NCBI GenBank assembly: GCA_002503055.1
Contig: DAQX01000029.1
Location: 2,674 to 66,673 of the forward strand
Reading direction: 5' to 3'
DNA: 64,000 bases
DNA from: Euryarchaeota archaeon UBA86
GTDB taxonomy: Archaea > Thermoplasmatota > Poseidoniia > Poseidoniales > Thalassarchaeaceae
A program made the position numbers and the translations under genes. Below are positions 7,265 through 61,721 of the stretch, one piece after another. How positions within the stretch are numbered: position 1 is the stretch's first letter; each line of letters starts with the position of its first letter. The notes below the pieces were generated by a model, which worked only from the letters and a program-made list of their open reading frames with translations, ran no database searches and was not told the origin of the DNA.

Positions 7265-10200
7265 GTGCCTCACGCGAGACAAGCACTCATAATCCTCGTA
7301 ACTCTCTTACTATCGACCCAAGCATCGTTGGTTCTCGCCGAGGAAGAGACGCAGACCACCTGTGCCGTACTTGTCGATTGGGATGTCGAGGAGCATTGGG
7401 ATGGGGGCTGGAATGTTACATTCGATGTCCTACATAGGTATCTTGTGATATTCGACCCCCCATTCACCGCAGGTGATACTCCAACTTCAGTCACAGTTTC
7501 AGTAGAGCAGCACAGAGATGAAATCCAAATTGCTGACAACTCGAACGCCTCGTACATCAATGCCGGCGGCGAGATTGACATTGTACTCGACACCGAACCT
7601 GAGTTTGGAGACATCGTTCAGATTTCTGTAATAACTTCCGAGGCCACCTGCTCTAGAGAACTCTCCATTACTCGCTGGAATCAACCTATGGCTGATCACG
7701 AGATTACTAGAGAGACAACTTGGAACATGGATGGTGCAGAACAAGACAACAGCATCGACTTTGAAGGAAGAGGATGGCAGAAGAGAACAGGAGATATCCT
7801 AGAGTCTAACGAACTCGGTAATGGGACTCTGTTGCTAGACTCGATGGATGGTACACAAGGCCTCATGCTAGCACTCAACCTTGAGACAATCTGGCTCAAC
7901 GAGACTTATGATGGAGTCGAACTTTTGAATCAGGACTTTGAGATGCGAGGAAACGGCTCACTCTTCCTGAACACCACCGAGGAAGGAGATGAAGGAAACA
8001 GCGGATTCTCCGTCGATGTTGATGTTCATGAAGTACTAGTTCTGCGTTCATGGCAGGAAGACAGCTCTACTGAACGCTTCCTGATCGACGGAACAGGTTG
8101 GTTGTCTTTCAACGGAGGAGATAATAATAGCTCTGAAGGAGGATTTGGACAACTTTCATCCTTCTATTGGGAGACATGGGACGAAGATGACAGAAGGAGA
8201 TTACAGCATCTACAACTGGAAGCGAATGCAACTCTGCGACTCGACAGTGGCGCAAACGAGTATTTCTCATTCGATCTCGATGAGTTCAGAATCCTAGAGC
8301 GCTGGGAAGACGGAATCAGAGAGGAACAACACTCACTGATTCTTGGCGGCGGAGATTTCGGGTTCTTAATTGACGACGAATTCTTCGAAGTCGAAGTAAA
8401 CGGAACCATCCCACTCATCCATTTCGAGACTATTGGGGGAGAGACAGTTGCAGATACAATCAGACTCGATGGAACCTACGACGGTGATGCAGAGGGTAGT
8501 TTCGGATTGATTAGAAGAATCGTTGATACAGGTACTCAAGAGAATGCAACTGGTGTGATGTTTGAGGTAGATAAAATCGAGAATGAGTTTTGGTTCAATG
8601 TCTCTGCAACTCCAATTGGCCCAATTACTGAGGATTGGCAGGCCGAGCACAATTTGACCTACGAGTACACAGTTCCACAAGTCGACTGGTGGAATCGTAC
8701 CATCAGGTACCAGTATATCGAGGACAATGGAACTGTGAATAATGAATATCCCGAGACATCGCCAATCATCGTACAGGCGCAGCAGCCTGAAGCAAACCGT
8801 ATCTTTGAGAATCATATTTCCAGAGAGACCGGATCTGCTCCAGAGATTCTCGTGCCTGGAGATAGTTTTGCTCTTGTAGGCAATGACGCACTCATACTGT
8901 CAGTCGATGTGATGTCTATTGTAGATGGCGAAATGGACGGACACAATGTCACTCTAGCAGAGTGGATTGGTGACTATGGCGGTAACACATATGCATCAGG
9001 CAGTGTCGTCAATGAAGGTCCACTTGCCGGTTTGTTGAATGAGGTCTATCGCTGGATCGACATTTCATTCAGCGAGAACGGGAGCTCCGAAAATCTAGCC
9101 TTTGTAGAGCATCAGTCTGTCGATAGAGTCCTCTCTCCTTCGGTAATCTCGGAGGAAGAAAATACCCCTCCTGCTCTAATTTCTGTAGGTTTCAGAGAAG
9201 GTAGGCTTCTGACTGAGGGAGACTCTGCTCATTTAGAAGTCCTAGTCTATGACTTCGATACAGATGTCACAGCTGTATCCGTGGATCTGACTGATATTGG
9301 CCTAGGAATAGTCGAACTCTCGGATTCTGGTCTTCTGGGTGACCACACCATCCATGATGACATCTGGACGGCACTGGTGAATTATGAAGGCCTAGAGCAC
9401 GGCATAATCCCAACCTCAGTTACAATCGATGATTTCTGGCTCTCAATTGTTGAGGAATCTAGTATTGAGATAACCAATGCAGCCCCCAGAATGCTTTCTC
9501 TACAATTCTCCCCTGACTCCGTGTTTCGCGGAGATTTAGTCGATGTCATAGTCACCGCAGTGGATGGCCACGGAGTCGAATCTGCAGCTGTTGACTTGCT
9601 TGGAGTCGGAGGTGAGCTAAGCCAACTAATCGAAACTAATGGTGAATGGATTGGCCAATTTACTGTACCGACCGGCATGTCCCCAGGGGAGCGAACAATT
9701 CCAATCCGAATAACCGACGGCGACGGCGAGACAGTGATTTCAGAGCATACTCACGCAGGAGGATTTCCAATTGATGCACCAAAGTTGACAATTGTGAATG
9801 AAGCTCCGATTATTGGAGACATTATCATTATCAGAGAAGGAGAAACAGTTGACACAGTACATGTTCCCTCTAGTGGTGACCCGATTACACACTTCCTTGA
9901 AGTTGCTATTGATGATCCAGATGGAGTCTCTTCTGCACAAGCAAAGATTGGCAGACTAGCACCAATTGGTAGCTCCGATGCTTGGCTTCTGATGGTGGAC
10001 GATGGAACAGGCGGAGACAGGGTTGCAGGCGATGGAATCTACACACTCTCTTTCGATGTTCGAACGACCTTGCCAGAGGGCAACATGACAATAGAAGTCA
10101 GAGCCACAGACACTTACCTCTCCACAACTCCGTACAACGATCAGCAGCAGACTCTAGAACTTGAGAAGATGATTTCTGGAGGAAGTGGAGGAAACTGGAT

Positions 10201-10306
10201 TGCTGACAACTCGATGTTACTGGTCGCAGTCGGCCTAGTTCTTCTGCTTCTAATCGGAGCTACTGCTATCGTAATTTCGATACGGAATTCTGAGACCGAG
10301 TGGTAA
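7265..10306 (+). CDS. Large secreted surface protein with C-terminal TM anchor (possible S-layer/adhesin-like glycoprotein)
   Basis: GTG start followed by a signal peptide (ALIILVTLLLSTQASLVLA). I hand-counted about 19 N-x-S/T sequons. Three ~110-aa Ig-like repeats lie in the C-terminal third. The C-terminus carries a single TM (LLVAVGLVLLLLIGATAIVI) followed by RNSETEW. Confidence 0.75.
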   Translation: MPHARQALIILVTLLLSTQASLVLAEEETQTTCAVLVDWDVEEHWDGGWNVTFDVLHRYLVIFDPPFTAGDTPTSVTVSVEQHRDEIQIADNSNASYINAGGEIDIVLDTEPEFGDIVQISVITSEATCSRELSITRWNQPMADHEITRETTWNMDGAEQDNSIDFEGRGWQKRTGDILESNELGNGTLLLDSMDGTQGLMLALNLETIWLNETYDGVELLNQDFEMRGNGSLFLNTTEEGDEGNSGFSVDVDVHEVLVLRSWQEDSSTERFLIDGTGWLSFNGGDNNSSEGGFGQLSSFYWETWDEDDRRRLQHLQLEANATLRLDSGANEYFSFDLDEFRILERWEDGIREEQHSLILGGGDFGFLIDDEFFEVEVNGTIPLIHFETIGGETVADTIRLDGTYDGDAEGSFGLIRRIVDTGTQENATGVMFEVDKIENEFWFNVSATPIGPITEDWQAEHNLTYEYTVPQVDWWNRTIRYQYIEDNGTVNNEYPETSPIIVQAQQPEANRIFENHISRETGSAPEILVPGDSFALVGNDALILSVDVMSIVDGEMDGHNVTLAEWIGDYGGNTYASGSVVNEGPLAGLLNEVYRWIDISFSENGSSENLAFVEHQSVDRVLSPSVISEEENTPPALISVGFREGRLLTEGDSAHLEVLVYDFDTDVTAVSVDLTDIGLGIVELSDSGLLGDHTIHDDIWTALVNYEGLEHGIIPTSVTIDDFWLSIVEESSIEITNAAPRMLSLQFSPDSVFRGDLVDVIVTAVDGHGVESAAVDLLGVGGELSQLIETNGEWIGQFTVPTGMSPGERTIPIRITDGDGETVISEHTHAGGFPIDAPKLTIVNEAPIIGDIIIIREGETVDTVHVPSSGDPITHFLEVAIDDPDGVSSAQAKIGRLAPIGSSDAWLLMVDDGTGGDRVAGDGIYTLSFDVRTTLPEGNMTIEVRATDTYLSTTPYNDQQQTLELEKMISGGSGGNWIADNSMLLVAVGLVLLLLIGATAIVISIRNSETEW

Positions 10307-10768: not shown

Positions 10769-10836
10769 GACTTGCACATGTCACACTACTTCTTGAATTG
10801 CATGAATCTCATAAGACGCCGCGCGGTGGGTTACAC

Positions 10837-12255
10837 ATGCACACACGCGAGCACCTGTACATAGATGGCAGTTGGGTTGAACCTACAGGCGAGGGGTCAA
10901 TCGAAGTCATCAATCCTGCTAATGAGGAAATCATCGGCTCAGTCCCGGTAGGTTCGGCCGCAGATGTCGAGGTGGCTGTTGCAGCGGCCAAAGCGGCCTT
11001 CTCCGAGTGGTCTAATACCTCGGTGGAAGACAGAGTTGTCTTCCTTAACTTGCTCTCACAGGCCATCAAGGAACATACCGAAGAGCTCACAGAACTGATT
11101 ACTTCAGAGGTTGGAACTCCAATCAATTACTGCCGAGGCGCAATGGTTGGCACTCCCAGAGTGGTTACTCGTTCGTACGCTAAGATTCTAGAGAACTACG
11201 AATGGGAAGAAGAGGTGAGAAACTCACTAATTGTCAAGGAGCCCATTGGCGTAGTTGCTATGATTACTCCTTGGAACTATCCTCTACACCAGATCATTGG
11301 CAAGGTCGCTCCGGCTATTGCGGCTGGCTGTACTATGGTCGTCAAGCCATCCAAGGAAGCGCCCCTGAACTCATTCGTACTCGCAGATATCATTCACGAG
11401 ATTGGTCTGCCTGCAGGCGTATTCAATCTAGTTTCAGGACACGGCAGAGAAATTGGTGAGGTATTGAGTAATCATCCCGATGTGGATATGGTAAGTTTCA
11501 CCGGCTCCACAGGAGCTGGAGTCAGAGTCAGCGAGTTGGCTGCTCCAAGTGTAAAGAGAGTAACATTGGAGCTCGGCGGCAAGAGTGCCAACATTATTCT
11601 CGATGATGCAGACATTGCAAAGGCAGCATCAGCATCGATTCACGCATGTTTTGGAAACTCCGGTCAGGAATGCTCTGCACTGACTAGATTATTAGTTCCC
11701 GAGTCGAAAAAGCAAGAAATAGTGGAAGTGATAACTGCGAAGATGGAGAAGTATTCTGTTGGTAATCCTATGGACGAATCAAAGCGCTGCGGACCGATGG
11801 TGTCCGGCAGACAGCAGGAGAGCGTTTCCTCATTCATTGCTGCTGGAATCGAAGAGGGAGCCACTTTGCTGGTTGGAGGATTGGGGATGCCTGATGGACT
11901 GGACAAGGGATATTTCGTTCGACCAACTGTGTTCTCAGATGTAACTCCGGAGATGACCATTTTCCGTGAGGAAATTTTCGGACCAGTACTCTCGATTACT
12001 ACATACTCTACAGAGGAGGAAGCCGTCGAGTTAGCCAATGATTCAGAGTATGGATTGTCTGGCGGAATTTGGTCAGGTGATGAAGAAAGAGCCCTGCGCG
12101 TGGCCAGACAAATGCGTACCGGACAAGTCAGTATCAACGGCGGACCATTCAACATCTCCGCTCCTTTTGGAGGCTACAAACTCTCAGGAAATGGTAGAGA
12201 GTTAGGAGTTCACGGCCTCGAAGAGTTCCTTGAAGTCAAGGCTATTCAGCGCTGA
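10837..12255 (+). CDS. NAD(P)-dependent aldehyde dehydrogenase
   Basis: ALDH motifs ELGGKSANII and FGNSGQECSALTRLLV, plus the catalytic-Cys context. The first ATG is at 10837; the ORF track starts at TTG 10798. Confidence 0.9.
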   Translation: MHTREHLYIDGSWVEPTGEGSIEVINPANEEIIGSVPVGSAADVEVAVAAAKAAFSEWSNTSVEDRVVFLNLLSQAIKEHTEELTELITSEVGTPINYCRGAMVGTPRVVTRSYAKILENYEWEEEVRNSLIVKEPIGVVAMITPWNYPLHQIIGKVAPAIAAGCTMVVKPSKEAPLNSFVLADIIHEIGLPAGVFNLVSGHGREIGEVLSNHPDVDMVSFTGSTGAGVRVSELAAPSVKRVTLELGGKSANIILDDADIAKAASASIHACFGNSGQECSALTRLLVPESKKQEIVEVITAKMEKYSVGNPMDESKRCGPMVSGRQQESVSSFIAAGIEEGATLLVGGLGMPDGLDKGYFVRPTVFSDVTPEMTIFREEIFGPVLSITTYSTEEEAVELANDSEYGLSGGIWSGDEERALRVARQMRTGQVSINGGPFNISAPFGGYKLSGNGRELGVHGLEEFLEVKAIQR

Positions 12256-12877: not shown

Positions 12878-13714
12878 CTAACGCCCGACCCATTCTGCCT
12901 CACTGCGTTCAAGGAATGCCTGGACACCAATCTCCTTGTCTTCGGTATCGAAAAGAGCAACGAATTCCGAACGCTCTGCTAGTACGCCCTCCGTGAATGG
13001 TAGATCTAGAGATGCTCGGACTGCTCTCTTGGCAACCTTGACAGTATAGGGTGACTTTCTCGCGATAACTTCAGCCATCTGCATGGCCTCTGATTCCAAG
13101 TCCTCTGGTTCGACGACTTTGTTCACCAAGCCAAGACGCAGGGCATCTTCGGCTCCTACCATCTCCCCTGTTAGGGTCATCTCCATCGCCTTGCCGTAAC
13201 CTAACAATCTACACAGCCTTTGAGTTCCTCCACCGCCCGGAATTAGTCCGAGATTAATTTCGGGCTGACCAAATTTGGCACGACTTGATGCCACTCTGAT
13301 ATCACACGCAAGTGCTAACTCAGTACCTCCGCCTAAAGCAAAACCGTCAACCATTGCTATGGTTGGTTTTGATAGATTCCAGACTGCTTCCCAAGCATTG
13401 TTCGCAAAGAAATCACGAACATCGTCAGATGACTTACCAGCGAATTCAGAGATGTCTGCTCCGGCGGCAAAGGCCGCGGGCTTTGCTCTACCCCCATCTT
13501 CTACCGGATGCGGCGCAGCCCCTCTTATCATAACGGCTCTAATCGAGTCTTCCGCCTCCACTCTCGCACATTGCTCTTTGATAGACGCGTGCGATTCTTG
13601 ATTCAGCGCGTTGAGCTTATCAGGGCGATTCAATGTCCAGATACTAATCACACCGCCCGATGGACTACTACCTTCGACCGGGATATCTTCTACCAGCAGA
13701 ACTCTCTCTGTCAT
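12878..13714 (-). CDS. Enoyl-CoA hydratase/isomerase (crotonase family)
   Basis: Crotonase core FAAGADISEF...MVDGFALGGGTELALACDIRV. The start is trimmed to ATG 13714 so that it does not overlap the upstream gene. Confidence 0.85.
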   Translation of the reverse strand: MTERVLLVEDIPVEGSSPSGGVISIWTLNRPDKLNALNQESHASIKEQCARVEAEDSIRAVMIRGAAPHPVEDGGRAKPAAFAAGADISEFAGKSSDDVRDFFANNAWEAVWNLSKPTIAMVDGFALGGGTELALACDIRVASSRAKFGQPEINLGLIPGGGGTQRLCRLLGYGKAMEMTLTGEMVGAEDALRLGLVNKVVEPEDLESEAMQMAEVIARKSPYTVKVAKRAVRASLDLPFTEGVLAERSEFVALFDTEDKEIGVQAFLERSEAEWVGR

Positions 13715-13755
13715 GTTGCCTCCACAGAGCCTATTGGCTTGAACATTCAGGCTAC

Positions 13756-14661
13756 TCAACCTTCGTCAGGTTTCACTGGAGGGGGCATAGGGGGCATTCC
13801 CGGAGGGAGGGGCATAGGGGGCATTCCCGGAGGAGGGGGCATAGGAGAAATCTCGTCTACCATCTCTTCCTGATCCTTCTTGCGAATGTCTTCTCTGGGT
13901 TTTACTTCAAGAGGGATTCTGATTCGAAGAATCCTCTCCTCGTCTATTCTAACATACGACACTCCCTGTGGCTTGGTTGAGTCAGGAGATTCCGGTTCGT
14001 CGAGAACGGTCATTCCATGGTCGGGCTGCTTGAGTAACTCTGCCAGATCTTCTCCATCCTCAACTGCAGACCATATTCTAGCCTTAGCAGCCCTTCTCTC
14101 AGCCATCTGCATCCTGCGCTTTCTTTCGATACGTGATCTAATCTCGGCCCTCTTGGCCCTTCTTTGACCTACAAACTCCTCAACCTCGGCTTCAAAATCT
14201 CCTTGAGGATTAGATTCGGCCACATATCGAGCTGCTAGATTGTTATCATCATCAATAATGACAGGCATTGGTGCAGGCGGCGGTAAATCGCCTTCGGCTG
14301 CTACAGGAGTGGGCATGGGCATGGGTGGCAGAGTAGGTAGAGGCATCTCTGGCTGTGGAGACTTACCTCTGCTTCGCTTGATTTTCTCTTCCTTGCGCTG
14401 GCTGGCGGTTTCAACTTCAAGTACAGGCTCTGGTAGATCGATTTCTACCTTCGGCTCTTTCTTCACTTCAGGCTCTATGACTATCTTTGGAGGTTGAGGA
14501 ACAGGAGAGCGCCCTGAGAACATCAGAAGAGAAACCAATGCTAGAAGGACAATTCCTCCTGCAATTTGAGTTAACGGACTCATATCGCCCGACAATATGA
14601 GGAACAACAGACTCCCGAGAATAACCGCTATCCAAAGAATCAACCGAGTGAGCGATACCAT
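13756..14661 (-). CDS. Membrane protein with charged helical region and Pro/Met-rich C-terminal repeats
   Basis: Two N-terminal hydrophobic helices are followed by a K/E/R-rich segment. The C-terminus carries PMPPPPGMP-type repeats. Confidence 0.6.
   Translation of the reverse strand: MVSLTRLILWIAVILGSLLFLILSGDMSPLTQIAGGIVLLALVSLLMFSGRSPVPQPPKIVIEPEVKKEPKVEIDLPEPVLEVETASQRKEEKIKRSRGKSPQPEMPLPTLPPMPMPTPVAAEGDLPPPAPMPVIIDDDNNLAARYVAESNPQGDFEAEVEEFVGQRRAKRAEIRSRIERKRRMQMAERRAAKARIWSAVEDGEDLAELLKQPDHGMTVLDEPESPDSTKPQGVSYVRIDEERILRIRIPLEVKPREDIRKKDQEEMVDEISPMPPPPGMPPMPLPPGMPPMPPPVKPDEG
13784..13846. repeat. 27-bp in-frame tandem repeat (~2.3 copies)
   Basis: GGCATAGGGGGCATTCCCGGAGG recurs at 13784 and 13811, and partially at 13838. 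It encodes the 9-aa PPMP(L/P)PPGM units of the gene above. Confidence 0.8.
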
Positions 14662-20841: not shown

Positions 20842-21120
20842 CTAATCAATCTGATTTTCTCTTCTTAGTCTAGTCACTCCTACAATTAGAGATAGAATAC
20901 AAACCAAAGCCGCCACATTTGCGGCAATTATCGAAATTGATCCGATTAGGATTCCGTAGATTAGCCATAATACGAGAGCCGTAGAAACCAACCAGAAAGT
21001 GGGAAGTGAGATGCCCTCATGAAGTCCTTCTATCCACACCTCTCTCAACTGAGGAAGCCAAGCCATTACGCCTAATGTTCCAGCAATGATTCCAATCGAT
21101 TCAATCAGAAAGGTCTGCAT
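20842..21120 (-). CDS. PQ-loop / SemiSWEET-like three-TM membrane protein
   Basis: Three hydrophobic helices with WLPQL in the first one. The start is trimmed to ATG 21120 (MQTFLIES), 7 nt after the upstream stop. Confidence 0.55.
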   Translation of the reverse strand: MQTFLIESIGIIAGTLGVMAWLPQLREVWIEGLHEGISLPTFWLVSTALVLWLIYGILIGSISIIAANVAALVCILSLIVGVTRLRRENQID

Positions 21121-21127
21121 GCTAACC

Positions 21128-22012
21128 TCAAAGATCATCTCGGTCCGATTTACCATCTGATGACCACTCATAGATTCCCTTGCCGACTTTCTTTCCTAGA
21201 TTTCCAGTTTCGACCAAACGATCGAGCATAGGATGTGGCAAGTATCGATCATCATCGAAAGCCTCGGCCAGATTGTTCAAAATATCGCGACGAACATCTA
21301 AACCAACTAAGTCGCTTAACTCAAGAGGTCCCATTGGATGCTTGTAGCCAAGTCGCATAGCAGTGTCAATGTCGCTAGCTGAGGCGACCCCATCTGCAAG
21401 CATCCTAATCGCCTCATTGCCCAGAACCACGCCCAATCTACTGGTAGCGAAACCCGGCACATCGCGAACAAGAATAGTTTCCTTTCCCATTGCAGAACCG
21501 ATTGATTGCGCGACTTTGACAGTGTCATCCGAACACGATTCATGACGAACTAACTCTATTAGACTCATCAACGGAACCGGATTGAAGAAATGCATCCCGA
21601 TAATCCTCTCCGGACACCCAGTAACACTCGCAATGTCTCCAATTCGTAGGCCGGAGGTATTGGTTGCAATAATTGCGTGAGAAGGCGCCATCTCTTCGAG
21701 CTGACGAAAGATACTTTGCTTCAGTTCCATTATCTCGGGCACGGCCTCGATTACGAGATCAGCACCAGATACTGCCGTGGACATATCATCGTGCGAACTA
21801 AGATTAGCCAACCACTCTGATTTCTGCTGCTCTGTGGTCTTACCGCGAACGATCCCTTTGTTCCAGAAGGAACTAATCGAATCCATGCCCTTCTGAAGCC
21901 CCTCAGGAAATGCATCGTAGAGCCGGGTTTGCCAACCAGTCTGAGCACAAACCTGAGCAATTCCGGAACCCATCGTCCCGGCGCCGATGACGGCGACGGT
22001 TCGGATACTCAT
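21128..22012 (-). CDS. hbd: 3-hydroxyacyl/3-hydroxybutyryl-CoA dehydrogenase
   Basis: Rossmann VAVIGAGTMGSGIAQ motif and HFFNPVPLM. 294 aa. Confidence 0.9.
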   Translation of the reverse strand: MSIRTVAVIGAGTMGSGIAQVCAQTGWQTRLYDAFPEGLQKGMDSISSFWNKGIVRGKTTEQQKSEWLANLSSHDDMSTAVSGADLVIEAVPEIMELKQSIFRQLEEMAPSHAIIATNTSGLRIGDIASVTGCPERIIGMHFFNPVPLMSLIELVRHESCSDDTVKVAQSIGSAMGKETILVRDVPGFATSRLGVVLGNEAIRMLADGVASASDIDTAMRLGYKHPMGPLELSDLVGLDVRRDILNNLAEAFDDDRYLPHPMLDRLVETGNLGKKVGKGIYEWSSDGKSDRDDL

Positions 22013-22016
22013 TGAC

Positions 22017-22577
22017 TCACTCCCGGCCGTATGCTGCTAGCGCTGCTTGAAACAGTCGCTGACGAGGCACATCATGCTCTAGGAAGCAGGTGAACGGAGC
22101 GACATCCTTGAGCAACTCAATTGCAGAAACATATGCTCCGTATACATACGGGTCAGCGGTTTCTGTGCTAGGGATATCTATTCCCAACTTGCTCAATCCT
22201 CTGAGTGTATCCTCGTCCCAGATAGCATATGTGTGACTTGTGAAATGTAAGTAGGCGGAAAGCCGGCGCATATCTGACCTAGCCTTCTCAGTAAAACTCT
22301 CGATTAGGAGGGTGTCAGGGTACCTGATAGCATAGAGGGCCAGCAAAACTTCCCTCTGAGTCTCCTCGCGCCAATCGCGCTTTGGCAAACCCATCCATGA
22401 GTCAATCATGTCAAGCATTTCCTGATTGTATGGTCTGCGAATTCTGTAGAGTAACTCCTCGTAACCATCAGCGTCCTGCTCGTCAGAATGGTGGTGCTCG
22501 TGGAAGTACTCGGTCAACTTGTCGAAGAATGGAGCGCAACGCTCCTTATCGAACATGGTCAAAGCGACATGCTGCAT
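22017..22577 (-). CDS. Hypothetical protein (His/acidic-rich N-terminus)
   Basis: 186-aa ORF packed tightly (4-15 nt gaps) between the BoxB-like gene and hbd. I recognise no family. Confidence 0.55.
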   Translation of the reverse strand: MQHVALTMFDKERCAPFFDKLTEYFHEHHHSDEQDADGYEELLYRIRRPYNQEMLDMIDSWMGLPKRDWREETQREVLLALYAIRYPDTLLIESFTEKARSDMRRLSAYLHFTSHTYAIWDEDTLRGLSKLGIDIPSTETADPYVYGAYVSAIELLKDVAPFTCFLEHDVPRQRLFQAALAAYGRE

Positions 22578-22592
22578 GTAAATCCCTCAGAA

Positions 22593-23735
22593 TCAGTTAC
22601 CCTTCCACTCGCGATACTGAATCCACTCTTCTTTCATGTACTCATTGACCAGCCTATCCTCGTCTTCATCAGTAGGAAGTACCGACGAGAGATAGTTTTC
22701 CCAAGCATCATCATCACCATCGAAAATCTCTCCATGAACAGTATAGCGCTTACCAGCATACTTGCCGATGCCGCGCTTGAACTTGTCAGAAGGGATGTAG
22801 AGTTCAGGCTCACCTTCCTTTCTAGCCTTGCTAATTCTGCGCATCTCTTCACGCAACTCTTGGAAGTATAGATCTCTGCTTGCTTCGTTCAAATGCTCTC
22901 TGTCTGCTGATTCCGAAGACTCCCTCTCATCATATCTGCCCTTAACTCCGTACACATATGCCCACTGAGCACTAGACGAGTCATCTGTTCCGAATAGGTC
23001 GAGTCCAGTGCTTACCCACTTGTTGACATACTTCTGAATCAGAGCACATGGAATGACTCCTTGCTTTACGATTCTTCGAAGACCATTTGCACCTGTTCCT
23101 AGGTGGAATGACTCCTCCTTGAGCATAGGGCCCATTGAGGCAGCGAGCGGCTTGAATGAAGAAGTACTGAGCATCTTCAGCTGGTACTTACCATCACGGT
23201 CGATGAAGTGAGTGAACATGAAGAAGTCAAGCCAATGATCAATTGGTTCGTTGAAAGAACCAAGGATTCGAGTCCCATCCTGAGCATTTCTCTCCAACAA
23301 CTTAGCTGCTTCACGAACTCCCTGCTCACCAAAGAAGGTGCAAAGTAGGTAAGCCATCTGCCAGCCGTGGCGCTGCTCTTCACACATGATTCTGAGAGCG
23401 GACTTGCGATCATATTCCGTCGGTGCAGAAGCCAATAGGTGGTTCTGTTGTTCGACAGATGCGAACTCCGTATCTCCCTGAACACTTACCATATTGATGA
23501 TTGCATCTCTGATGGTCTGCTGAGGAATCTGCATCCTCCTCTGCCACTTTGGTCTGCCTTCGAAATCTCCGAACTCGATAGTGTCTCCAGCGGTATCCCA
23601 GTCGAACTTGATATCGAACCTGTAGTCACCTAGCCAAGAAGGGTCAAACCCTATTCTAGTCTGCCACTCATTAAACTCTTCAATCCACACTTCGAAGTTC
23701 TGCGTGTAGTCTGCTACTATCTCTGCGTCTGCCAT
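22593..23735 (-). CDS. Diiron acyl-CoA oxygenase, BoxB-like (benzoyl-CoA 2,3-epoxidase family)
   Basis: QGDTEFASVEQQ, EEQRHGWQMAYLL (ExxH), FFMFTHFIDRDGKYQL and KEESFHLGTG (ExxH) match my recollection of BoxB rather than PaaA. At 380 aa it is shorter than bacterial BoxB. Confidence 0.65.
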   Translation of the reverse strand: MADAEIVADYTQNFEVWIEEFNEWQTRIGFDPSWLGDYRFDIKFDWDTAGDTIEFGDFEGRPKWQRRMQIPQQTIRDAIINMVSVQGDTEFASVEQQNHLLASAPTEYDRKSALRIMCEEQRHGWQMAYLLCTFFGEQGVREAAKLLERNAQDGTRILGSFNEPIDHWLDFFMFTHFIDRDGKYQLKMLSTSSFKPLAASMGPMLKEESFHLGTGANGLRRIVKQGVIPCALIQKYVNKWVSTGLDLFGTDDSSSAQWAYVYGVKGRYDERESSESADREHLNEASRDLYFQELREEMRRISKARKEGEPELYIPSDKFKRGIGKYAGKRYTVHGEIFDGDDDAWENYLSSVLPTDEDEDRLVNEYMKEEWIQYREWKGN

Positions 23736-23803
23736 CGTTAATTGGCAGAGATAACAGGTATATCAAACGCTGTATATGAAAGCGCACTCTACAGAGTGCG
23801 GTC

Positions 23804-24685
23804 TCAGTTACCATCGAATTCTGGAACTTCTCTGTTCACATATGCCGCAATACCCTTCTTGGCATCCTCACTCTGGAACAAATCCGACTGCAACTCTCTT
23901 TCTAGGGCCAAATGGTACTCTAGTGGAATCTCCATCCCACTCTGCACACTTCGCTTTATGTTTCCAATGGCCTTACTCGCAGCGTAGGGTAGAGTGAACT
24001 GGCCAGCATAGTCAAGCACATCTTGTTGGAACTCATCCAAACTTCCAGCCCAAACATCGTGAACTAGATCCATTTCCTTGGCTTCCTCGTATGAGAACTT
24101 ACGTCCTGTAACCATAATTTCCATCGCCTTTGCCTTGCCTACTAAGCGGGCAAGTCTAGCAGTACCTCCGGTTCCTGCAAGCACTCCTAGAGAGACTTCC
24201 GGTAGTCCGACTTGACCCGAGTCCTTGCGGCCGATACGAATGTCGGCGGACATTGCAATCTCAAGTCCACCGCCGACAGCGTGACCGTTCAGTGCAGCGA
24301 TAACAAGCTTGGGAGTCTGCTCTAATCTGCTCAGAGTTTCATTGGCGTGAAGACAGAAGAAATACTTGAATCCGGGACTAACTGAATCCAGCATGCTGAT
24401 GCTGGCTCCTGCCGAGAAGAACTTCTCTCCGTATCCAGTTAGGAGGATTACGGTTACATCATCGTCGAAGCGAGCCTTAAGCACAGCCTCATCGATATCT
24501 CTCATCATTGCGTGAGTATAGGTGTTCACCGGAGTCTTACCCTCAGTTAGCGGCTCGCCAGCGGAATCAGAGCACAGTTCGATTACTGCGATTCCGTTGT
24601 CAGTCACTCCGTAGTTCACAAGGTTGTTCTGCATTGGCTGCATTTCCGGCCAAGATGTCATACCCGGGCCACTCAGGGACGCCAT
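23804..24685 (-). CDS. Enoyl-CoA hydratase/isomerase family protein
   Basis: Crotonase core FFSAGASISML...LNGHAVGGGLEIAMSADIRI. The start is trimmed to ATG 24685 (MASLSG), 29 nt downstream of the preceding stop. Confidence 0.85.
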   Translation of the reverse strand: MASLSGPGMTSWPEMQPMQNNLVNYGVTDNGIAVIELCSDSAGEPLTEGKTPVNTYTHAMMRDIDEAVLKARFDDDVTVILLTGYGEKFFSAGASISMLDSVSPGFKYFFCLHANETLSRLEQTPKLVIAALNGHAVGGGLEIAMSADIRIGRKDSGQVGLPEVSLGVLAGTGGTARLARLVGKAKAMEIMVTGRKFSYEEAKEMDLVHDVWAGSLDEFQQDVLDYAGQFTLPYAASKAIGNIKRSVQSGMEIPLEYHLALERELQSDLFQSEDAKKGIAAYVNREVPEFDGN

Positions 24686-24714
24686 ATCAAACAAACGGAG
24701 ACGAATGACGCCTT

Positions 24715-25944
24715 TCAGGCGTCGCCATCTCCGAAAGAGATTGATCCTCCGCCTTTGCGAATTGCCTCCCACTGTGAACCAATCTCCTCGGCTCGCGGAC
24801 TCGGTTCCCACGAGTCGCGAGACAGAGAACTCCTGAACGGCATCCTTCGAACCATCCTACCATCTTTCAGTTGCTTACGCCGCAGCATGCCTGCCCTAAC
24901 AATGGGCCAGAGCATTAGTCGAAGTGGCCCAGGAGCATACAACCAGCGCATGAAGACTAAACCGTCGCCTTTTCTGCGCTGGTTTCTCATCCAGTGATTA
25001 GCGACCAGTTTGAATCCCCTGTCTCCGACTCTGTTCATCAAGAAGCGATTGATGGCACTGGCTCGAACCAGAGGGACCAAGCGCTTTCGGACTTCAGCCT
25101 CGTAATCAGATTCTCCAAGTATTGCCTTAGCTGCAAAGACTCCGCTAGTGATTGCATAGCGCATCCCGAATCCCCACATGAAGTCCTGTAGCCCACCTGC
25201 TTCACCAACATAGTATCGCCCCTCGTGGACATACCTGTCAGGTAGTGAAAAGTCGCCTTTACCACCAACTCTCTTGATGGGTCTACGATTGAGTTCGTAG
25301 TGCTGCTCATACCACGCAATCGTCTCGTTCAGATAGCGCGATGTACGCTTCTGTTTACGCCAAAGGCAGGTGCAGATTAGTCCAATGCCATCGATAATAA
25401 TCAGGTAAGAGTAGGCACCAGGGGCGAGCTTGTCATTGAGTTGGAATGAAACATGGTTAGGATGGTCAGTGTGAAAGATTTCACCGAAGGCAACCGCACT
25501 CGATTCCTTGGGCCCGGCTGCGACAATATGACAGTCTTCAGGAGGCCTCCGAGTACCATAGTGTATGGTGGCACCCGCAGCCGTTGCCATTCGCTTGAAT
25601 CCCTGGTCAATGCAGTGCGAGTCAGTACCACGTTCGACCACTCTGAAGGCAACACCGTCAGTAATAGGGTTGGTAATTTCATCATCGGGATGAATCAGGT
25701 CAATGATATCGAAGTCGTTAGACTTGAACTCTTCAGGATCTAAACCCCAATCACGCATTTCATCGAAGAAGTCCGACTCACTACTGGTCCAATTTTCGAT
25801 ACCTTGGAAATCCCCATCGAAACGAGCACCACTGTCATTTCTAATTTCATGCACATGGACCTCCCTGCCTGCCTTAGCCAGATAGGTCGCTGCGGCCAGT
25901 CCAGAAAGTCCAGCGCCGAGAATGTGGACTGGCTCCTCACTCAT
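24715..25944 (-). CDS. FAD-dependent oxidoreductase (geranylgeranyl-reductase/UbiH-like fold)
   Basis: Rossmann dinucleotide motif VHILGAGLSGLAAATYLAKAGREVHVHE and a later GEAGG motif. The start is set at ATG 25944. Confidence 0.7.
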   Translation of the reverse strand: MSEEPVHILGAGLSGLAAATYLAKAGREVHVHEIRNDSGARFDGDFQGIENWTSSESDFFDEMRDWGLDPEEFKSNDFDIIDLIHPDDEITNPITDGVAFRVVERGTDSHCIDQGFKRMATAAGATIHYGTRRPPEDCHIVAAGPKESSAVAFGEIFHTDHPNHVSFQLNDKLAPGAYSYLIIIDGIGLICTCLWRKQKRTSRYLNETIAWYEQHYELNRRPIKRVGGKGDFSLPDRYVHEGRYYVGEAGGLQDFMWGFGMRYAITSGVFAAKAILGESDYEAEVRKRLVPLVRASAINRFLMNRVGDRGFKLVANHWMRNQRRKGDGLVFMRWLYAPGPLRLMLWPIVRAGMLRRKQLKDGRMVRRMPFRSSLSRDSWEPSPRAEEIGSQWEAIRKGGGSISFGDGDA

Positions 25945-26021
25945 GCTACCGCGAACATTCACCCCTGCTTGAACGGTTGGGTCTTGCGTGGCGTTCAAGC
26001 GCGACACCCGCATGGCCAGTC

Positions 26022-26444
26022 ATGCCAAGCGTGCGGGTGCTAGTTGAACCCGAACAACTCGAACCCGATTCACTCCGCCAAGAACTTGAGACAGAGGGCT
26101 GCGGAAGTGTAGTCAGTTTTGTTGGCTTGACTCGTGGAGAGGACGATGGAATCGCTGTAGAGAGGCTGGAGTTCGATGCATGGGAAGAAAAACTTCCCGA
26201 TGTACTGAATAATTTAGCCGAGCAGGCGATAATTCAATTCGGTGTTAAATCAGTGGTAATGGCACATCGCACTGGCTCAGTAGGCCCTAGCGAGCCAATA
26301 GTCTGCATCCACACCGCCTCTCCTCACAGGGCCGAGGGCTTCGAGGCCTGTAGTTGGCTAATTGACGAACTCAAGCGACAAGCTCCTTTGTGGAAGAAAG
26401 AAGTCAGGGCCGATGGGGAAATCTGGAAGGCTGGCCTGGGCTGA
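26022..26444 (+). CDS. moaE: Molybdopterin synthase catalytic subunit
   Basis: SFVGLTRG..., MAHRTGSVGPSEPIVCIHTASPHRAEGFEA and APLWKKE match the MoaE pattern. ATG at 26022. Confidence 0.8.
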   Translation: MPSVRVLVEPEQLEPDSLRQELETEGCGSVVSFVGLTRGEDDGIAVERLEFDAWEEKLPDVLNNLAEQAIIQFGVKSVVMAHRTGSVGPSEPIVCIHTASPHRAEGFEACSWLIDELKRQAPLWKKEVRADGEIWKAGLG

Positions 26445-27779
26445 TTAGATCGCGCCTACACCACTGATCGCATTCGGTACATTCGAAGCGATCCCTTCGA
26501 CCATCATCCAACCGTGCCCTTTGATGCCGTCTCCAACCAGTCGAATTCCATCTACGCCAATATCAGAAGGCAACTCTGCACCCTGCGGGGCTCGATTACA
26601 CGGCCAGTTCCTATGGTAAGAGTGAACACATATTTCCTCAGCGTGGTCAGATAACCACGGAATCGCTTCGTACAGATCATCTCTGCCCTTGCTAATCTCC
26701 GACTTAACAGTCGGGTCAGGAACAAACTGGTGAGTAATCATCAGATGCTTACCTTCGGGAGCCAGACTAGAATCTGAGAAGGTAGGGATGACATATCCAC
26801 CAACTCGTTCTAGTCCTGGAAGCATGGTAACACCGCTACCTCGATGAGGGATATCATCATCGAGAGCAAACGCAAAACCAATTCCCCCTACTGCCTGAGT
26901 ATCACGCACTTGCTCTCTGACGCCTTCTGTAACCTCGAAGTCTTCAGAAAGTGAATTTAGCAGGTTAGGATGACCACCGTTGTGAATAATTGAATCTGCA
27001 CCAACCCACTTCGCTTCGTCACGCCCTCGTCGTCGTACACCAATGCAAAACCTGTGATTCTTAGTCGACTCCTCTTCATCACCGGGAAGGATTTCTGTTA
27101 TCTCGTGAGATAGCTTGACTCGCGTACCATTCTCACGCAGATCCTTCCTCAAACCATCTATCACACCTTTGCAGCCGCCTTTCGGAACATGTGGCCTGTC
27201 ACTCCAGAAAGAATTCTGCAACATTCTGACAACAGTTGAGGCTGGCATTTGATCGAATCTTAGGCTAATTGCGAAGTTTGAGAATGCATCTAGAAAATCT
27301 ATGAAATCATCAGAAAATCGCCTTGACAACCAAGTTCTACCATCTTCAGTCTCGTCCTCCCAGGGATCCTTCGCTCTTTTCATTAGGAGACCTGGTAGAT
27401 TGATTGCGTCCTTAGCAGAGAACCATGGAAGAATACCAAAAGCCGAACCGGCTCTACTCAACTTACCATCTCTGATTTGACAGGCGAACTTTGTTGTTGG
27501 AAGAAACTCAACTCCATGCCGCCCTAATTCGAGCCCACCCCTTCTGCGCTTGCCTAGGATCATATTGGCAAATGGCCCCTTTTTCCCATGTGGTATCATA
27601 TGGACAGCACCGGTAGGAATCTGATATCCATCGTGATCGTGCTGAGTGAACCTACCTCCTGCGAAAGACATTCTCTCATATACACTGACATCTGATCTAC
27701 CGGTCTGCGCAATCAGCGCAGCAGACATCAGGCCACCCACACCCGCTCCAATCACGACTGTTTTCGGTTTGTCAGCCAT
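26445..27779 (-). CDS. FAD/NAD(P)-dependent oxidoreductase, phytoene-desaturase (CrtI)-like
   Basis: N-terminal VVIGAGVGGLMSAALIAQ...YERMSFAGGR. 444 aa. Confidence 0.7.
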   Translation of the reverse strand: MADKPKTVVIGAGVGGLMSAALIAQTGRSDVSVYERMSFAGGRFTQHDHDGYQIPTGAVHMIPHGKKGPFANMILGKRRRGGLELGRHGVEFLPTTKFACQIRDGKLSRAGSAFGILPWFSAKDAINLPGLLMKRAKDPWEDETEDGRTWLSRRFSDDFIDFLDAFSNFAISLRFDQMPASTVVRMLQNSFWSDRPHVPKGGCKGVIDGLRKDLRENGTRVKLSHEITEILPGDEEESTKNHRFCIGVRRRGRDEAKWVGADSIIHNGGHPNLLNSLSEDFEVTEGVREQVRDTQAVGGIGFAFALDDDIPHRGSGVTMLPGLERVGGYVIPTFSDSSLAPEGKHLMITHQFVPDPTVKSEISKGRDDLYEAIPWLSDHAEEICVHSYHRNWPCNRAPQGAELPSDIGVDGIRLVGDGIKGHGWMMVEGIASNVPNAISGVGAI

Positions 27780-27788
27780 TGATGCACC

Positions 27789-28049
27789 TCAGGTGTAGAC
27801 CAATGCTCCTGTTGGACACCACAGTAAGCACCTCAAACAGTCAGTGCAATTTTCTAGAATAACCTCACATAATCCCTCCACAACTAGTGCATCGTCCTTA
27901 CAAGCCATTAGGCAATATGAGCATCCTACGCATAGATCATCCATAACCCCGAGACGCATCGCATCTGTGATAGGGCGGTCATGGCTAATTCCAGAAATCA
28001 ATACCGGTACCGCACCGGGCGTAGCCCTCTCCCGAAAGGTCCCTACCAT
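27789..28049 (-). CDS. Small 4Fe-4S ferredoxin-like protein
   Basis: Two Cys clusters: CVGCSYCLMAC and CTDCLRCLLWCP. It lies 9 nt upstream of the CrtI-like gene on the same strand. Confidence 0.6.
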   Translation of the reverse strand: MVGTFRERATPGAVPVLISGISHDRPITDAMRLGVMDDLCVGCSYCLMACKDDALVVEGLCEVILENCTDCLRCLLWCPTGALVYT

Positions 28050-28150: not shown

Positions 28151-28612
28151 ATGGACGACGAGGGCTGGACAGGAATGGTCGACATAGGTTCCAAGCCGGT
28201 AGTTGCCCGTGAGGCAGTAGCAACTGGAGTATTGATACTCTCAGAGACCGCTATCGATGTCGTCGCAAATGGACGCTCCCCCAAGGGCGATGTCAGAGAA
28301 GCCTCGACCATAGCAGCCATTCAGGCGGTTAAGGAGACTCCCCGAACACTGCCCCATTGTCATCCCATACCGATCGAAGGCTGCGATGTTGATTGGAAGA
28401 TTGAGGGTGGCGGACTTCGTTGTACTGTCACTGTCAGAACACATTGGACTACAGGAGTTGAGATGGAGGCACTTTGCGGAGTCAGCGCTGCGCTACTATG
28501 TGCATGGGACATGCTGAAACCACTCGAGAAGGACTCTAATGGGCAATATCCCAACTCTCGGATTGAAGGAATCCGTGTGCTCAGAAAGAGTAAGTCAGAC
28601 CCGCATAATTGA
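28151..28612 (+). CDS. moaC: Cyclic pyranopterin monophosphate synthase accessory protein
   Basis: MVDIGSKPVV..., KGDV...A.IAAIQA.K.T and HPIPIEG.DV patterns. 153 aa. Confidence 0.85.
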   Translation: MDDEGWTGMVDIGSKPVVAREAVATGVLILSETAIDVVANGRSPKGDVREASTIAAIQAVKETPRTLPHCHPIPIEGCDVDWKIEGGGLRCTVTVRTHWTTGVEMEALCGVSAALLCAWDMLKPLEKDSNGQYPNSRIEGIRVLRKSKSDPHN

Positions 28613-61660: not shown

Positions 61661-61721
61661 GGACAAGTCATTTGCCAACTTAACTCTTTACTTGGCATTT
61701 GGGCACTTTGATTTCATTGAT

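Follow-up and report, generated by a model that had tools for sequence, protein, structure and literature searches.

A compact BoxB-like diiron oxygenase in a conserved gene cluster of Poseidoniales archaea: a possible route for oxygen-dependent CoA-thioester ring cleavage

Gene organization of the locus

The DNA analysed (hereafter the window) is a 64-kb stretch of contig DAQX01000029.1 from Euryarchaeota archaeon UBA86, a Marine Group II (MGII) ocean archaeon of the order Poseidoniales, which is very abundant. It carries six co-directional genes, and all six open reading frames are present at these coordinates:

24715-25944, minus strand, FAD protein (longest open reading frame to 26013)
23804-24685, minus strand, crotonase ("ECHo")
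22593-23735, minus strand, short BoxB-like diiron oxygenase, 380 amino acids, at the cluster centre
22017-22577, minus strand, unknown protein, 186 amino acids
21128-22012, minus strand, 3-hydroxyacyl-CoA dehydrogenase
20842-21120, or up to 21171, minus strand, PQ-loop/SemiSWEET-like protein

Two further genes, 7–9 kb from the cluster, are putative parts of the same pathway:

10798-12255, plus strand, aldehyde dehydrogenase (ALDH; Aldedh, 554 bits)
12878-13759, minus strand, second crotonase, a PaaF-like hydratase (ECH_1, 204 bits)

The tight packing described in the initial annotation is borne out, with gaps of 4–68 nt (29, 68, 15, 4 and about 7 nt). The last value assumes that the PQ-loop protein starts at the methionine at 21120; its longest open reading frame instead overlaps the dehydrogenase gene by 44 nt. 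Homologues of the FAD protein align over about 404–416 residues, in agreement with the start at 25944. Starting the crotonase at the GTG at 24811 would extend it into the FAD gene; its alignment with bacterial orthologues begins near 24625. At locus L016, from another genus, all six genes are found in identical order, indicating that the arrangement did not arise by chance.

The diiron oxygenase

In profile searches, the 380-residue protein scores 223.7 bits against BoxB (TIGR03225), below the equivalog cut-off of 499.1 bits, and 41.8 bits against PaaA, for which the cut-off is 280 bits. It also matches the Pfam family PaaA_PaaC (PF05138; 50.9 bits, cut-off 28.5), and the BoxB structure 3per in the PDB is matched at E 2e-48. 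The diiron motifs on which the initial annotation had relied are found in the protein, and the scores agree with its view that this oxygenase is nearer to BoxB than to PaaA; an unrelated ferritin-like family is not indicated.

Residues of BoxB that bind iron or position the benzoyl group have been listed (PMC5489048). In alignments all six iron ligands (Glu120, Glu150, His153, Asp211, Glu240 and His243) are kept, as are the benzoyl-positioning residues Gln116, Thr119, Ser123, Phe193, Phe203 and Phe206, and most second-shell residues are retained. The pocket nonetheless differs from that of BoxB at four positions (Thr210 to Ile, Pro121 to Phe, Leu154 to Gly and His242 to Phe), so that the substrate could differ as well. 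The deficit of about 90 residues relative to bacterial BoxB, already remarked upon in the initial annotation, is explained by four or five internal and terminal deletions rather than by truncation. These alignments identify the protein as a compact BoxB homologue that is nonetheless full-length. In a phylogenetic tree, canonical BoxB forms a separate, long-branched and fully supported clade.

The other proteins

The crotonase (ECH_1, 157 bits) possesses both catalytic glutamate motifs (GGGLE and LPEVS), and is proposed to act as a hydrolase or hydratase on the oxygenase product. A PaaH-like role is proposed for the dehydrogenase (3HCDH_N 206 bits, 3HCDH 109 bits), which shares 51% identity with its counterpart in the bacterial operons described below. 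The FAD protein matches NAD_binding_8 (31 bits) and, weakly, the C-terminus of geranylgeranyl reductase; by these matches it is a FAD/NAD(P)-binding flavoprotein of an uncharacterised family, and its structure model has a pLDDT of 40. The SemiSWEET-like assignment of the last protein is weaker than had been stated, as both scores are below cut-off (NF037968 53.8 bits, cut-off 80; PQ-loop 20.9 bits, cut-off 22). This small membrane protein is a possible transporter.

No Pfam or NCBIfam family is matched by the 186-residue protein. It is predicted to be all-helical (AF2 pLDDT 89.8). Its nearest folds are those of HhH-GPD glycosylases, which it resembles weakly but consistently (Z up to 6.5), and of a queuine-salvage enzyme; Foldseek matches have E above 1. 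The conserved catalytic Asp and the Gly-rich hairpin are absent. On the strength of synteny, this protein is a candidate oxygenase subunit.

The window ALDH is 67–78% identical to the ALDH adjoining the cluster in loci L015 and L016 and 42% identical to that of the bacterial operon, and is proposed to be the semialdehyde dehydrogenase of the pathway. The second crotonase scores 226.5 bits on the PaaF model. It shares 46% identity with the third crotonase in the bacterial operon and 76% with a crotonase that L016 encodes some 3.5 kb outside its six-gene cluster. A third crotonase known from relatives was not found in the UBA86 genome, which is 79% complete.

Distribution and gene order in archaea

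The short BoxB gene is present in single copy in 119 of 121 Poseidoniales genomes. The gene for the 186-residue protein lies directly downstream in nine of the ten Thermoplasmatota loci examined, and the dehydrogenase gene is nearby in most archaeal loci. The FAD gene is paired with the crotonase gene in MGIIa and MGIIb. A SemiSWEET-like gene follows the dehydrogenase in L016 too; in the loci of MGIIa and of family f2 no SemiSWEET match was obtained, and an EamA transporter gene separates the genes for the 186-residue protein and the dehydrogenase. Family f2 and genus g6 of MGIIb have ALDH and further crotonase genes next to the cluster. Gene order is thus conserved across the order and beyond, but the six genes grouped in the initial annotation are not all one conserved unit: the core consists of the crotonase, the BoxB-like oxygenase, the 186-residue protein and the dehydrogenase, while the FAD and SemiSWEET-like genes are lineage-specific neighbours. 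A near-universal peripheral catabolic pathway is unusual in streamlined genomes.

Bacterial operons and a reductase-like molybdenum enzyme

Several bacterial phyla likewise encode short BoxB, chiefly Gemmatimonadota and Acidobacteriota but also Rokubacteria, with 44–56% identity to the UBA86 protein. An orthologue of the crotonase (55–67% identity) is encoded upstream in 49 of the 55 bacterial loci with enough flanking sequence. The operon of Gemmatimonadaceae encodes, in order, a TetR regulator, a crotonase (64% identical to the archaeal one), an ALDH, a thiolase, a PaaG-like crotonase, short BoxB, a dehydrogenase and a PaaF-like crotonase. The thiolase is closest to 3-oxoadipyl-CoA thiolase (563–567 bits, under the cut-offs of 597–605). 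These operons have the oxygenase, crotonase, dehydrogenase and ALDH in common with the archaeal cluster, and lend independent support to the hybrid oxygenase/beta-oxidation pathway first suggested from the archaeal genes. They differ in being headed by TetR, in the presence of a thiolase gene and, at ten of the loci, of the large and medium subunit families of a molybdenum reductase, and in the absence of the 186-residue protein, which is encoded beside short BoxB in none of 80 bacterial loci. The FAD gene and any crotonase gene of BoxC size are likewise absent from the bacterial loci.

In Acidobacteriota and Rokubacteria, short BoxB is followed by genes for the gamma, alpha and beta subunits of 4-hydroxybenzoyl-CoA reductase, and in the locus scanned (L082) the alpha subunit exceeds its cut-off (1039 against 994.55 bits). 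The UBA86 genome possesses a gamma-alpha-beta operon on another contig, whose best matches are the same reductase families (TIGR03193/4/5), typified by HcrCAB of Thauera aromatica, by wide margins for alpha (805 bits against 521 for the second-best family) and beta (231 against 110 bits). In contrast to HcrCAB, all three subunits fall below the equivalog cut-offs (169 vs 258, 805 vs 995 and 231 vs 405 bits), and the host is an aerobic photoheterotroph; by sequence the enzyme is a putative reductase. Its alpha subunit is 46% identical to that of Terriglobia, and its beta subunit has kept the cysteine-rich insert. An alpha-like gene was identified in all 63 other Poseidoniales genomes sampled, and in four of five Gemmatimonadales genomes with the short-BoxB operon. 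The enzyme is missing from Thermoplasmatota families f29, f23 and f18, despite their short BoxB.

Comparison with the Box and Paa systems

BoxB of the Azoarcus (Aromatoleum) evansii BoxABCD system (3PER/3PM5) is homologous to short BoxB over its whole length and has the same six diiron ligands. It is encoded with the crotonase-family BoxC and with BoxD, much as short BoxB is accompanied by a crotonase-family gene and a linked ALDH. An annotated canonical box cluster, by contrast, comprises ligase, boxC, boxB and boxA. BoxA, whose absence beside the oxygenase was pointed out in the initial annotation, was found in none of 61 Poseidoniales genomes by profile search with a positive control, and neither was the roughly 550-residue BoxC. 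The phenylacetyl-CoA 1,2-epoxidase PaaABCDE shares family PF05138 with short BoxB, and its lower pathway (PaaG, PaaZ or an alternative hydrolase plus ALDH, PaaJ, PaaF and PaaH) is mirrored by the three crotonases, ALDH, dehydrogenase and thiolase. Short BoxB differs in being single-component, with no adjacent PaaB, PaaC, PaaD or PaaE genes, and in its low PaaA score.

A possible pathway and its alternatives

From homology, active-site conservation, synteny and co-occurrence I infer the following scheme, whose substrate, individual reactions, electron donor and protein–protein contacts are all putative. The substrate would be an aryl-CoA, most likely benzoyl-CoA, perhaps supplied in part by the reductase-like molybdenum enzyme. 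The compact BoxB homologue would epoxidise or otherwise oxygenate it with O2 and two electrons from a donor (no reductase gene is linked to short BoxB in any locus examined, and the evidence ties none of the donors suggested in the initial annotation, the FAD protein, the ferredoxin and the CysJ-like reductase, to the oxygenase), with the 186-residue protein as an archaea-specific accessory. The highly conserved crotonase would then open or hydrate the product, ALDH would oxidise the resulting semialdehyde, and the remaining conversion to central CoA esters, resembling beta-oxidation, would fall to the PaaF-like crotonase, the 3-hydroxyacyl-CoA dehydrogenase and a thiolase whose gene lies elsewhere. 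That the cluster is the core of such an O2-dependent ring cleavage for a benzoyl-CoA-type substrate, a Box variant without BoxA and BoxC, appears somewhat better than an even bet. Against it speak the BoxB score below the equivalog cut-off, the altered pocket, the absence of a linked reductase gene, the distance of the ALDH and second crotonase genes from the cluster, the missing third crotonase, the Thermoplasmatota families that have short BoxB but no reductase-like enzyme, and the near-universal presence of what would be a peripheral pathway. Nor did any CoA ligase for benzoate or phenylacetate score above cut-off in five MGII genomes.

The same type of pathway may act on another substrate, either phenylacetyl-CoA or another aryl- or heteroaryl-CoA, for which aromatic amino acids are one conceivable source, with the neighbours in the roles of PaaG, oxepin-CoA hydrolase, ALDH, PaaF and PaaH. 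The bacterial operon content suits Paa as well as Box, the top NCBIfam match of the crotonase adjoining ALDH in L015 is an alternative-type oxepin-CoA hydrolase (170 bits, cut-off 300), and the degradation of proteins and amino acids has been described for MGII archaea (PMC6461757); the pocket substitutions point the same way. Against phenylacetyl-CoA stand the BoxB and PaaA scores, and PaaK was not found in five MGII genomes, nor above cut-off in five Gemmatimonadales genomes. The benzoyl-positioning residues are mostly retained, and the operons that join short BoxB to 4-hydroxybenzoyl-CoA reductase, an enzyme that forms benzoyl-CoA, make a different substrate unlikely, if still the most serious competitor.

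It is improbable that the oxygenase is an aliphatic acyl-CoA hydroxylase or desaturase of ordinary fatty-acid or branched-chain beta-oxidation. In favour of this, its immediate neighbours are a two-glutamate crotonase and a 3-hydroxyacyl-CoA dehydrogenase, which would then be generic beta-oxidation enzymes, fatty-acid degradation has been reported from MGII genomes (PMC6461757), and the window encodes no ring-specific enzyme over an equivalog cut-off. Straight beta-oxidation, however, yields no aldehyde, yet ALDH is conserved in the bacterial operons and the wider archaeal cluster; the thiolase assignment, the reductase genes in operon with short BoxB and the preserved aromatic pocket of BoxB also speak for a ring substrate. 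About as improbable is a two-gene housekeeping or biosynthetic unit of the oxygenase and the 186-residue protein, concerned for instance with a cofactor or nucleic-acid-related compound and unrelated to the flanking acyl-CoA genes. This would account for the near-universal presence of short BoxB, a core gene in Poseidoniales, and for the glycosylase-like fold of its partner; no other two genes stay together in nearly every archaeal locus. The resemblance in fold is weak, however, with the catalytic features absent, and in bacteria the oxygenase lacks this partner but keeps the same crotonase, ALDH and dehydrogenase.

With benzoyl-CoA-type ring cleavage as the preferred reading, Poseidoniales, nearly every member of which has the gene, would probably break down benzoate-type aromatic acids with oxygen. 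I found no published description of such an archaeal compact-BoxB pathway.

Archaeal PaaA/BoxB-like proteins of the SSO1313 type (235 residues; PDB 4MUD) belong to the same superfamily (78.8 bits), but comprise only the four-helix core, corresponding to residues 55–280 of short BoxB, and have a basal position in the tree. Other Thermoplasmatota possess comparably short proteins, whose genes adjoin a crotonase or dehydrogenase gene (L023, L024).

Gene content of the cluster

The short BoxB-like oxygenase is encoded within a run of minus-strand genes, in a source genome of 1.28 Mb that is 79% complete. The initial annotation described six packed genes, and all six open reading frames are indeed present, with gaps of 29, 68, 15, 4 and ∼7 nt. 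These genes, and the other features of the window discussed below, are:

24715-25944, minus strand: FAD protein
23804-24685, minus strand: crotonase
22593-23735, minus strand: short BoxB, diiron oxygenase of 380 aa
22017-22577, minus strand: 186-aa protein
21128-22012, minus strand: 3-hydroxyacyl-CoA dehydrogenase
20842-21120, minus strand: SemiSWEET-like protein
25977-26444 and 28151-28612, plus strand: moaE (molybdopterin synthase gene) and moaC, interleaved with the cluster
26445-28049, minus strand: CrtI/amine-oxidase-like FAD protein (444 aa), then an 86-aa 2x[4Fe-4S] ferredoxin
13756-14661, minus strand: 301-aa ORF, with a 4-nt overlap with the start of a PaaF-like crotonase
7265-10306, plus strand: 1013-aa ORF, no Pfam match

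The nearest database proteins to those of the window are 86-92% identical, originate from marine metagenomes, and are labelled Candidatus Thalassarchaeaceae or Euryarchaeota archaeon, which places the window in a Marine Group II genome (Poseidoniales, MGIIb). Domain searches upheld five of the six initial assignments. The sixth, SemiSWEET, falls under the curated cut-offs (NF037968, 53.8 vs 80 bits; PQ-loop, 20.9 vs 22), and the likeness is genuine though sub-threshold. The likeliest start of the crotonase is 24685, as a longer GTG start would overlap the upstream gene and the orthologue alignment starts near 24625; for the FAD protein it is 25944. The crotonase scores 157 bits with ECH_1 and possesses both catalytic Glu motifs (GGGLE and LPEVS), and attains no NCBIfam equivalog cut-off. 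For the FAD protein, comparison to PDB sequences gave Rossmann-motif matches only, comparison to the Atlas gave uncharacterised flavoprotein clusters only, and the AlphaFold model, generated from a four-sequence alignment, has a pLDDT of 40.

A compact BoxB-like oxygenase

The diiron protein had been placed nearer to BoxB than to PaaA, and the profile scores agree (223.7 bits with the BoxB model, 41.8 with that of PaaA), both being under the respective equivalog cut-offs (TIGR03225, 499.1 bits; TIGR02156, 280 bits). A bacterial short form, from the Gemmatimonadales locus L046, similarly scores 236.3 bits on TIGR03225. The archaeal protein is over the gathering threshold of the PaaA_PaaC family PF05138 (50.9 vs 28.5 bits). 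Its best solved relative is Azoarcus evansii BoxB (E 2e-48), followed by a 235-aa Sulfolobus protein (4MUD), with PaaA distant after these.

In BoxB, the iron atoms are bound by Glu120, Glu150, His153, Asp211, Glu240 and His243, and the benzoyl group is placed by Gln116, Thr119, Ser123, Phe193, Phe203/206 and Thr210 (PMC5489048). All six iron ligands are identical in the alignment with the short BoxB, within the motifs GDTE, EEQRH, IDRDG and KEESFH. The benzoyl-orienting Gln116, Thr119, Ser123, Phe193, Phe203 and Phe206 are also kept, with Thr210 replaced by Ile and the neighbouring Pro121 and His242 both replaced by Phe. A shortfall of ∼90 residues relative to BoxB, suspected from the start, is borne out by an end-to-end alignment; because four or five separate deletions account for the missing residues, the protein is compact rather than truncated. 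No PaaB, PaaC, PaaD or PaaE gene adjoins it. Within the same family, the 367-aa member P0292 has lost the iron ligands (e.g., QADCH for QGDTE), and recalls the non-catalytic PaaC.

Haloarchaeal PaaA and PaaC served as the root for a tree of the oxygenases. In it, canonical BoxB is a clade with full support and a long branch, whose members include a Mycetohabitans BoxB with annotated boxA and boxC neighbours; the clade falls among the short forms, with weakly supported placement. The short BoxB family is broader than canonical BoxB, and in the tree appears to surround it, again with weak support. A single clade (97% SH-aLRT), within a mostly bacterial radiation, unites the Poseidoniales (Marine Group II, MGII) with two other Thermoplasmatota families. 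Of 121 sampled Poseidoniales genomes, which represent all 21 genera, 119 carry the short BoxB as a single copy. Across the phylum sample it is found in 92 of 301 genomes, and in none of the 106 genomes of the large families f5, f6, f16 and f19 together. Only 913 matches (E <= 0.001) were obtained among 1.84 billion cluster representatives.

Conservation of the archaeal neighbourhood

All six genes are found, in the same order, in genus g6 of the MGIIb. The order in family f2 is crotonase, oxygenase, 186-aa gene, EamA transporter and dehydrogenase, with an aldehyde dehydrogenase (ALDH) and another crotonase abutting; in MGIIa, it is oxygenase, 186-aa gene, EamA and dehydrogenase, with the FAD-crotonase pair 8 kb off. 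The ALDH (10798-12255) and second crotonase (12878-13759) of the window are orthologues of genes located near the six-gene cluster in g6, and the ALDH has a further match in the f2 gene that abuts the cluster there. Neither Pfam nor PDB gave a match for the 301-aa ORF upstream of the second crotonase; in the MGIIb locus L016, the orthologous crotonase is likewise preceded by a gene of about this size.

Loci of MGIIa, f2 and MGIIb all retain the adjacency of moaE and moaC to the cluster, which would fit a molybdenum cofactor requirement. The pair formed by the CrtI/amine-oxidase-like protein and the ferredoxin is kept in L016, and the ferredoxin (27789-28049) is a possible electron donor.

The 186-aa protein

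The gene for the 186-aa protein is directly downstream of the oxygenase in nine of the ten Thermoplasmatota loci with a full-length oxygenase, a pairing that persists when oxygenase identity to the window's protein drops to 48%. The protein has no match in domain searches, Pfam included. Its structural model is all-helical (pLDDT 89.8), and Foldseek returned nothing significant (best E 1.5). In an exhaustive structural comparison (VIA-align), nearly all top rows are HhH-GPD glycosylases, with Z-scores of at most 6.5, under the chance level of helical proteins; the top alignment has an rmsd of 4.5 over 157 residues (Z 6.5). A language-model search pointed to DUF6308 and HI_0787_N clusters. The Gly-rich hairpin of the HhH-GPD DNA glycosylases is not visible in a 15-sequence alignment, and Asp121, the candidate catalytic Asp judged from the motif, is Ser or Thr in MGIIa. 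This protein had been described as His/acid-rich; its His-rich stretch occurs in MGIIb only, and is therefore not a family feature. No fusion was found among proteins of 364-2000 aa, which is a weak test. I read it as a putative, archaea-specific oxygenase accessory.

Bacterial operons encoding a short BoxB

A query with a distant short form retrieved 80 bacterial loci, mostly from Gemmatimonadota and Acidobacteriota, and also from Eisenbacteria, Zixibacteria, Rokubacteria and Ignavibacteria. Upstream flanks of 5 kb or more are available for 55 of them; 49 of these 55 encode, within 4 kb upstream of the short BoxB, a crotonase that shares 55-67% identity with its archaeal counterpart, and a dehydrogenase ∼50% identical follows the short BoxB in 46 bacterial loci. 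A Gemmatimonadaceae operon consists, in order, of TetR, crotonase (64% identity to the archaeal one), ALDH, thiolase, PaaG-like crotonase, short BoxB, a GDPD-family gene, dehydrogenase and PaaF-like crotonase. The thiolase scores 563-567 bits on 3-oxoadipyl-CoA thiolase models, slightly below their cut-offs and far above generic thiolase models. Ten loci of Acidobacteriota and Rokubacteria encode, near the short BoxB, the large and medium subunit families of 4-hydroxybenzoyl-CoA reductase, which come after a dienoyl-CoA-hydratase-like crotonase in most of the ten; in L082, the locus scanned, the alpha subunit is over its equivalog cut-off (1039 vs 994.55 bits). The product of this reductase is benzoyl-CoA.

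Some accompanying genes are specific to subsets of these operons. In both Gemmatimonadales operons examined (L046:9126-9869 and L083:9162-10100), a glycerophosphodiester-phosphodiesterase-family gene lies between the short BoxB and the dehydrogenase, the slot of the 186-aa gene in archaea, and the other Gemmatimonadaceae loci show a gap of similar size in this slot. A class-I glutamine-amidotransferase-like gene separates the crotonase from the short BoxB in three Acidobacteriota operons (L072:7155-7880), and a macro-domain (ADP-ribose-binding) gene is found in three loci, in L072 (9920-10474) directly after the second crotonase of the operon.

A reductase-like molybdenum enzyme in the archaeon

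A reductase-like operon is encoded in the same genome, on contig C7, outside the window, and is listed here with an MGIIa regulator gene:

C7:28151-32520 (L122:9152-13521): gamma-alpha-beta molybdenum enzyme operon; an HTH_10 regulator and maturation genes of XdhC-like and MobA-like type lie upstream
L013:10452-11078 (MGIIa), minus strand: HTH_10 regulator directly upstream of the BoxB-like gene

The best families for the three C7 subunits are those of 4-hydroxybenzoyl-CoA reductase (TIGR03193/03194/03195), all with scores under the equivalog cut-offs (gamma, 168.9 vs 257.8; alpha, 805.4 vs 994.55; beta, 230.7 vs 404.55 bits). The lead over the next family is 284 bits for alpha and 121 for beta, and only ∼4 for gamma. 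The alpha subunit is 46% identical to a Terriglobia alpha. The cysteine-rich insert of beta, the site of an extra Fe-S cluster in the Thauera structure, is kept, with five invariant Cys in common with three bacterial operon-encoded beta subunits; these presumably bind an Fe-S cluster.

The alpha model scores 775-821 bits in all five MGII genomes tested, and the 63 other Poseidoniales genomes in the phylum sample all carry an alpha-like gene. Such a gene is also found in four of five Gemmatimonadales genomes holding a short-BoxB operon (819-836 bits). The co-occurrence is incomplete, as three Thermoplasmatota families possess the oxygenase without the reductase-like enzyme. A shared regulator for this operon and the MGIIa BoxB-like gene was considered and rejected, the two HTH_10 proteins being alike in the HTH domain only.

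Box and Paa partners not found

Canonical BoxB has BoxA as its reductase partner, and its product is cleaved by BoxC, a dihydrolase of ∼550 aa. BoxA was initially reported missing from the window. In 61 Poseidoniales genomes, of which 48 are at least 90% complete, neither BoxA nor BoxC gave a hit at E <= 1e-30, while the BoxC control, a Mycetohabitans plasmid carrying boxC, gives 975 bits. In this genome the best match to the BoxA model, at 71 bits, covers an FNR module only. The CysJ-like reductase (38545-39825) was rejected as a split BoxA, with ∼370 bits on CysJ models vs 79 on BoxA, over the FNR module only. The ferredoxin 27789-28049 is not picked up by the BoxA model. No link to the oxygenase emerged for either of these two proteins, and no locus links a reductase to it. 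Phenylacetate-CoA ligase (PaaK) has no match in five MGII genomes, and the benzoate-CoA ligase equivalog was not found in the MGII genomes tested (matches of at most 64 bits vs a cut-off of 375). The FadD-like ligase at 59852-61678 was discarded, being generic.

A putative aerobic aryl-CoA pathway

These observations make it somewhat probable that the cluster encodes a Box-like aerobic ring-cleavage pathway for a benzoyl-CoA-type substrate, all reaction steps being inferred. The conserved crotonase would act in place of BoxC, and the ALDH in place of BoxD. The retained benzoyl-orienting residues are consistent with this substrate; the Ile and Phe replacements beside them would suit a different aryl-CoA, and I consider such a substrate unlikely, the reductase families being encoded near the short BoxB in bacteria.

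An aliphatic acyl-CoA oxygenase would also fit the crotonase and dehydrogenase. Ring cleavage to a C6 dicarboxyl-CoA requires an ALDH and a 3-oxoadipyl-CoA-type thiolase, neither of which is needed by plain beta-oxidation; both are found in the Gemmatimonadaceae operon, and the aliphatic reading is improbable. The near-constant pairing of the oxygenase with the 186-aa gene, and its near-universal single copy in Poseidoniales, would also be expected of a two-gene housekeeping unit with no relation to the flanking genes. The recurrence of the crotonase and dehydrogenase around the bacterial short BoxB argues against this, and I give it little credence.

Building on the Box-like reading, a more specific proposal is tentative and less probable: an undescribed aerobic pathway common to Poseidoniales and several bacterial phyla, in which a molybdenum enzyme of the 4-hydroxybenzoyl-CoA reductase type might supply benzoyl-CoA to a compact BoxB without need of BoxA or BoxC, a conventional-size crotonase might open the ring, and in archaea a new 186-aa protein of glycosylase-like fold might serve as the oxygenase accessory. 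If true, nearly all MGII archaea would consume phenolic and benzoic acids in the surface ocean. The short BoxB seems to dispense with the known reductase and ring-opening partners, and would therefore provide a simpler model of diiron aryl-CoA epoxidation, along with a new candidate accessory protein.

The Poseidoniales are the most abundant planktonic archaea, and MGII are among the most numerous microbes of surface seawater. They are not known to have been cultured, and their carbon sources are deduced from genomes. A near-universal O2-dependent aryl-CoA pathway would add aromatic acids to their presumed diet, with phytoplankton phenolics, lignin-derived compounds and aromatic amino acids as candidate sources. 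Full-text literature searches returned no paper connecting boxB with Marine Group II, and two major MGII genome surveys make no mention of aromatic compounds or of the short BoxB gene. The only paper found to name BoxB and 4-hydroxybenzoyl-CoA reductase together deals with SAR324 bacteria, whose boxB and boxC are canonical.
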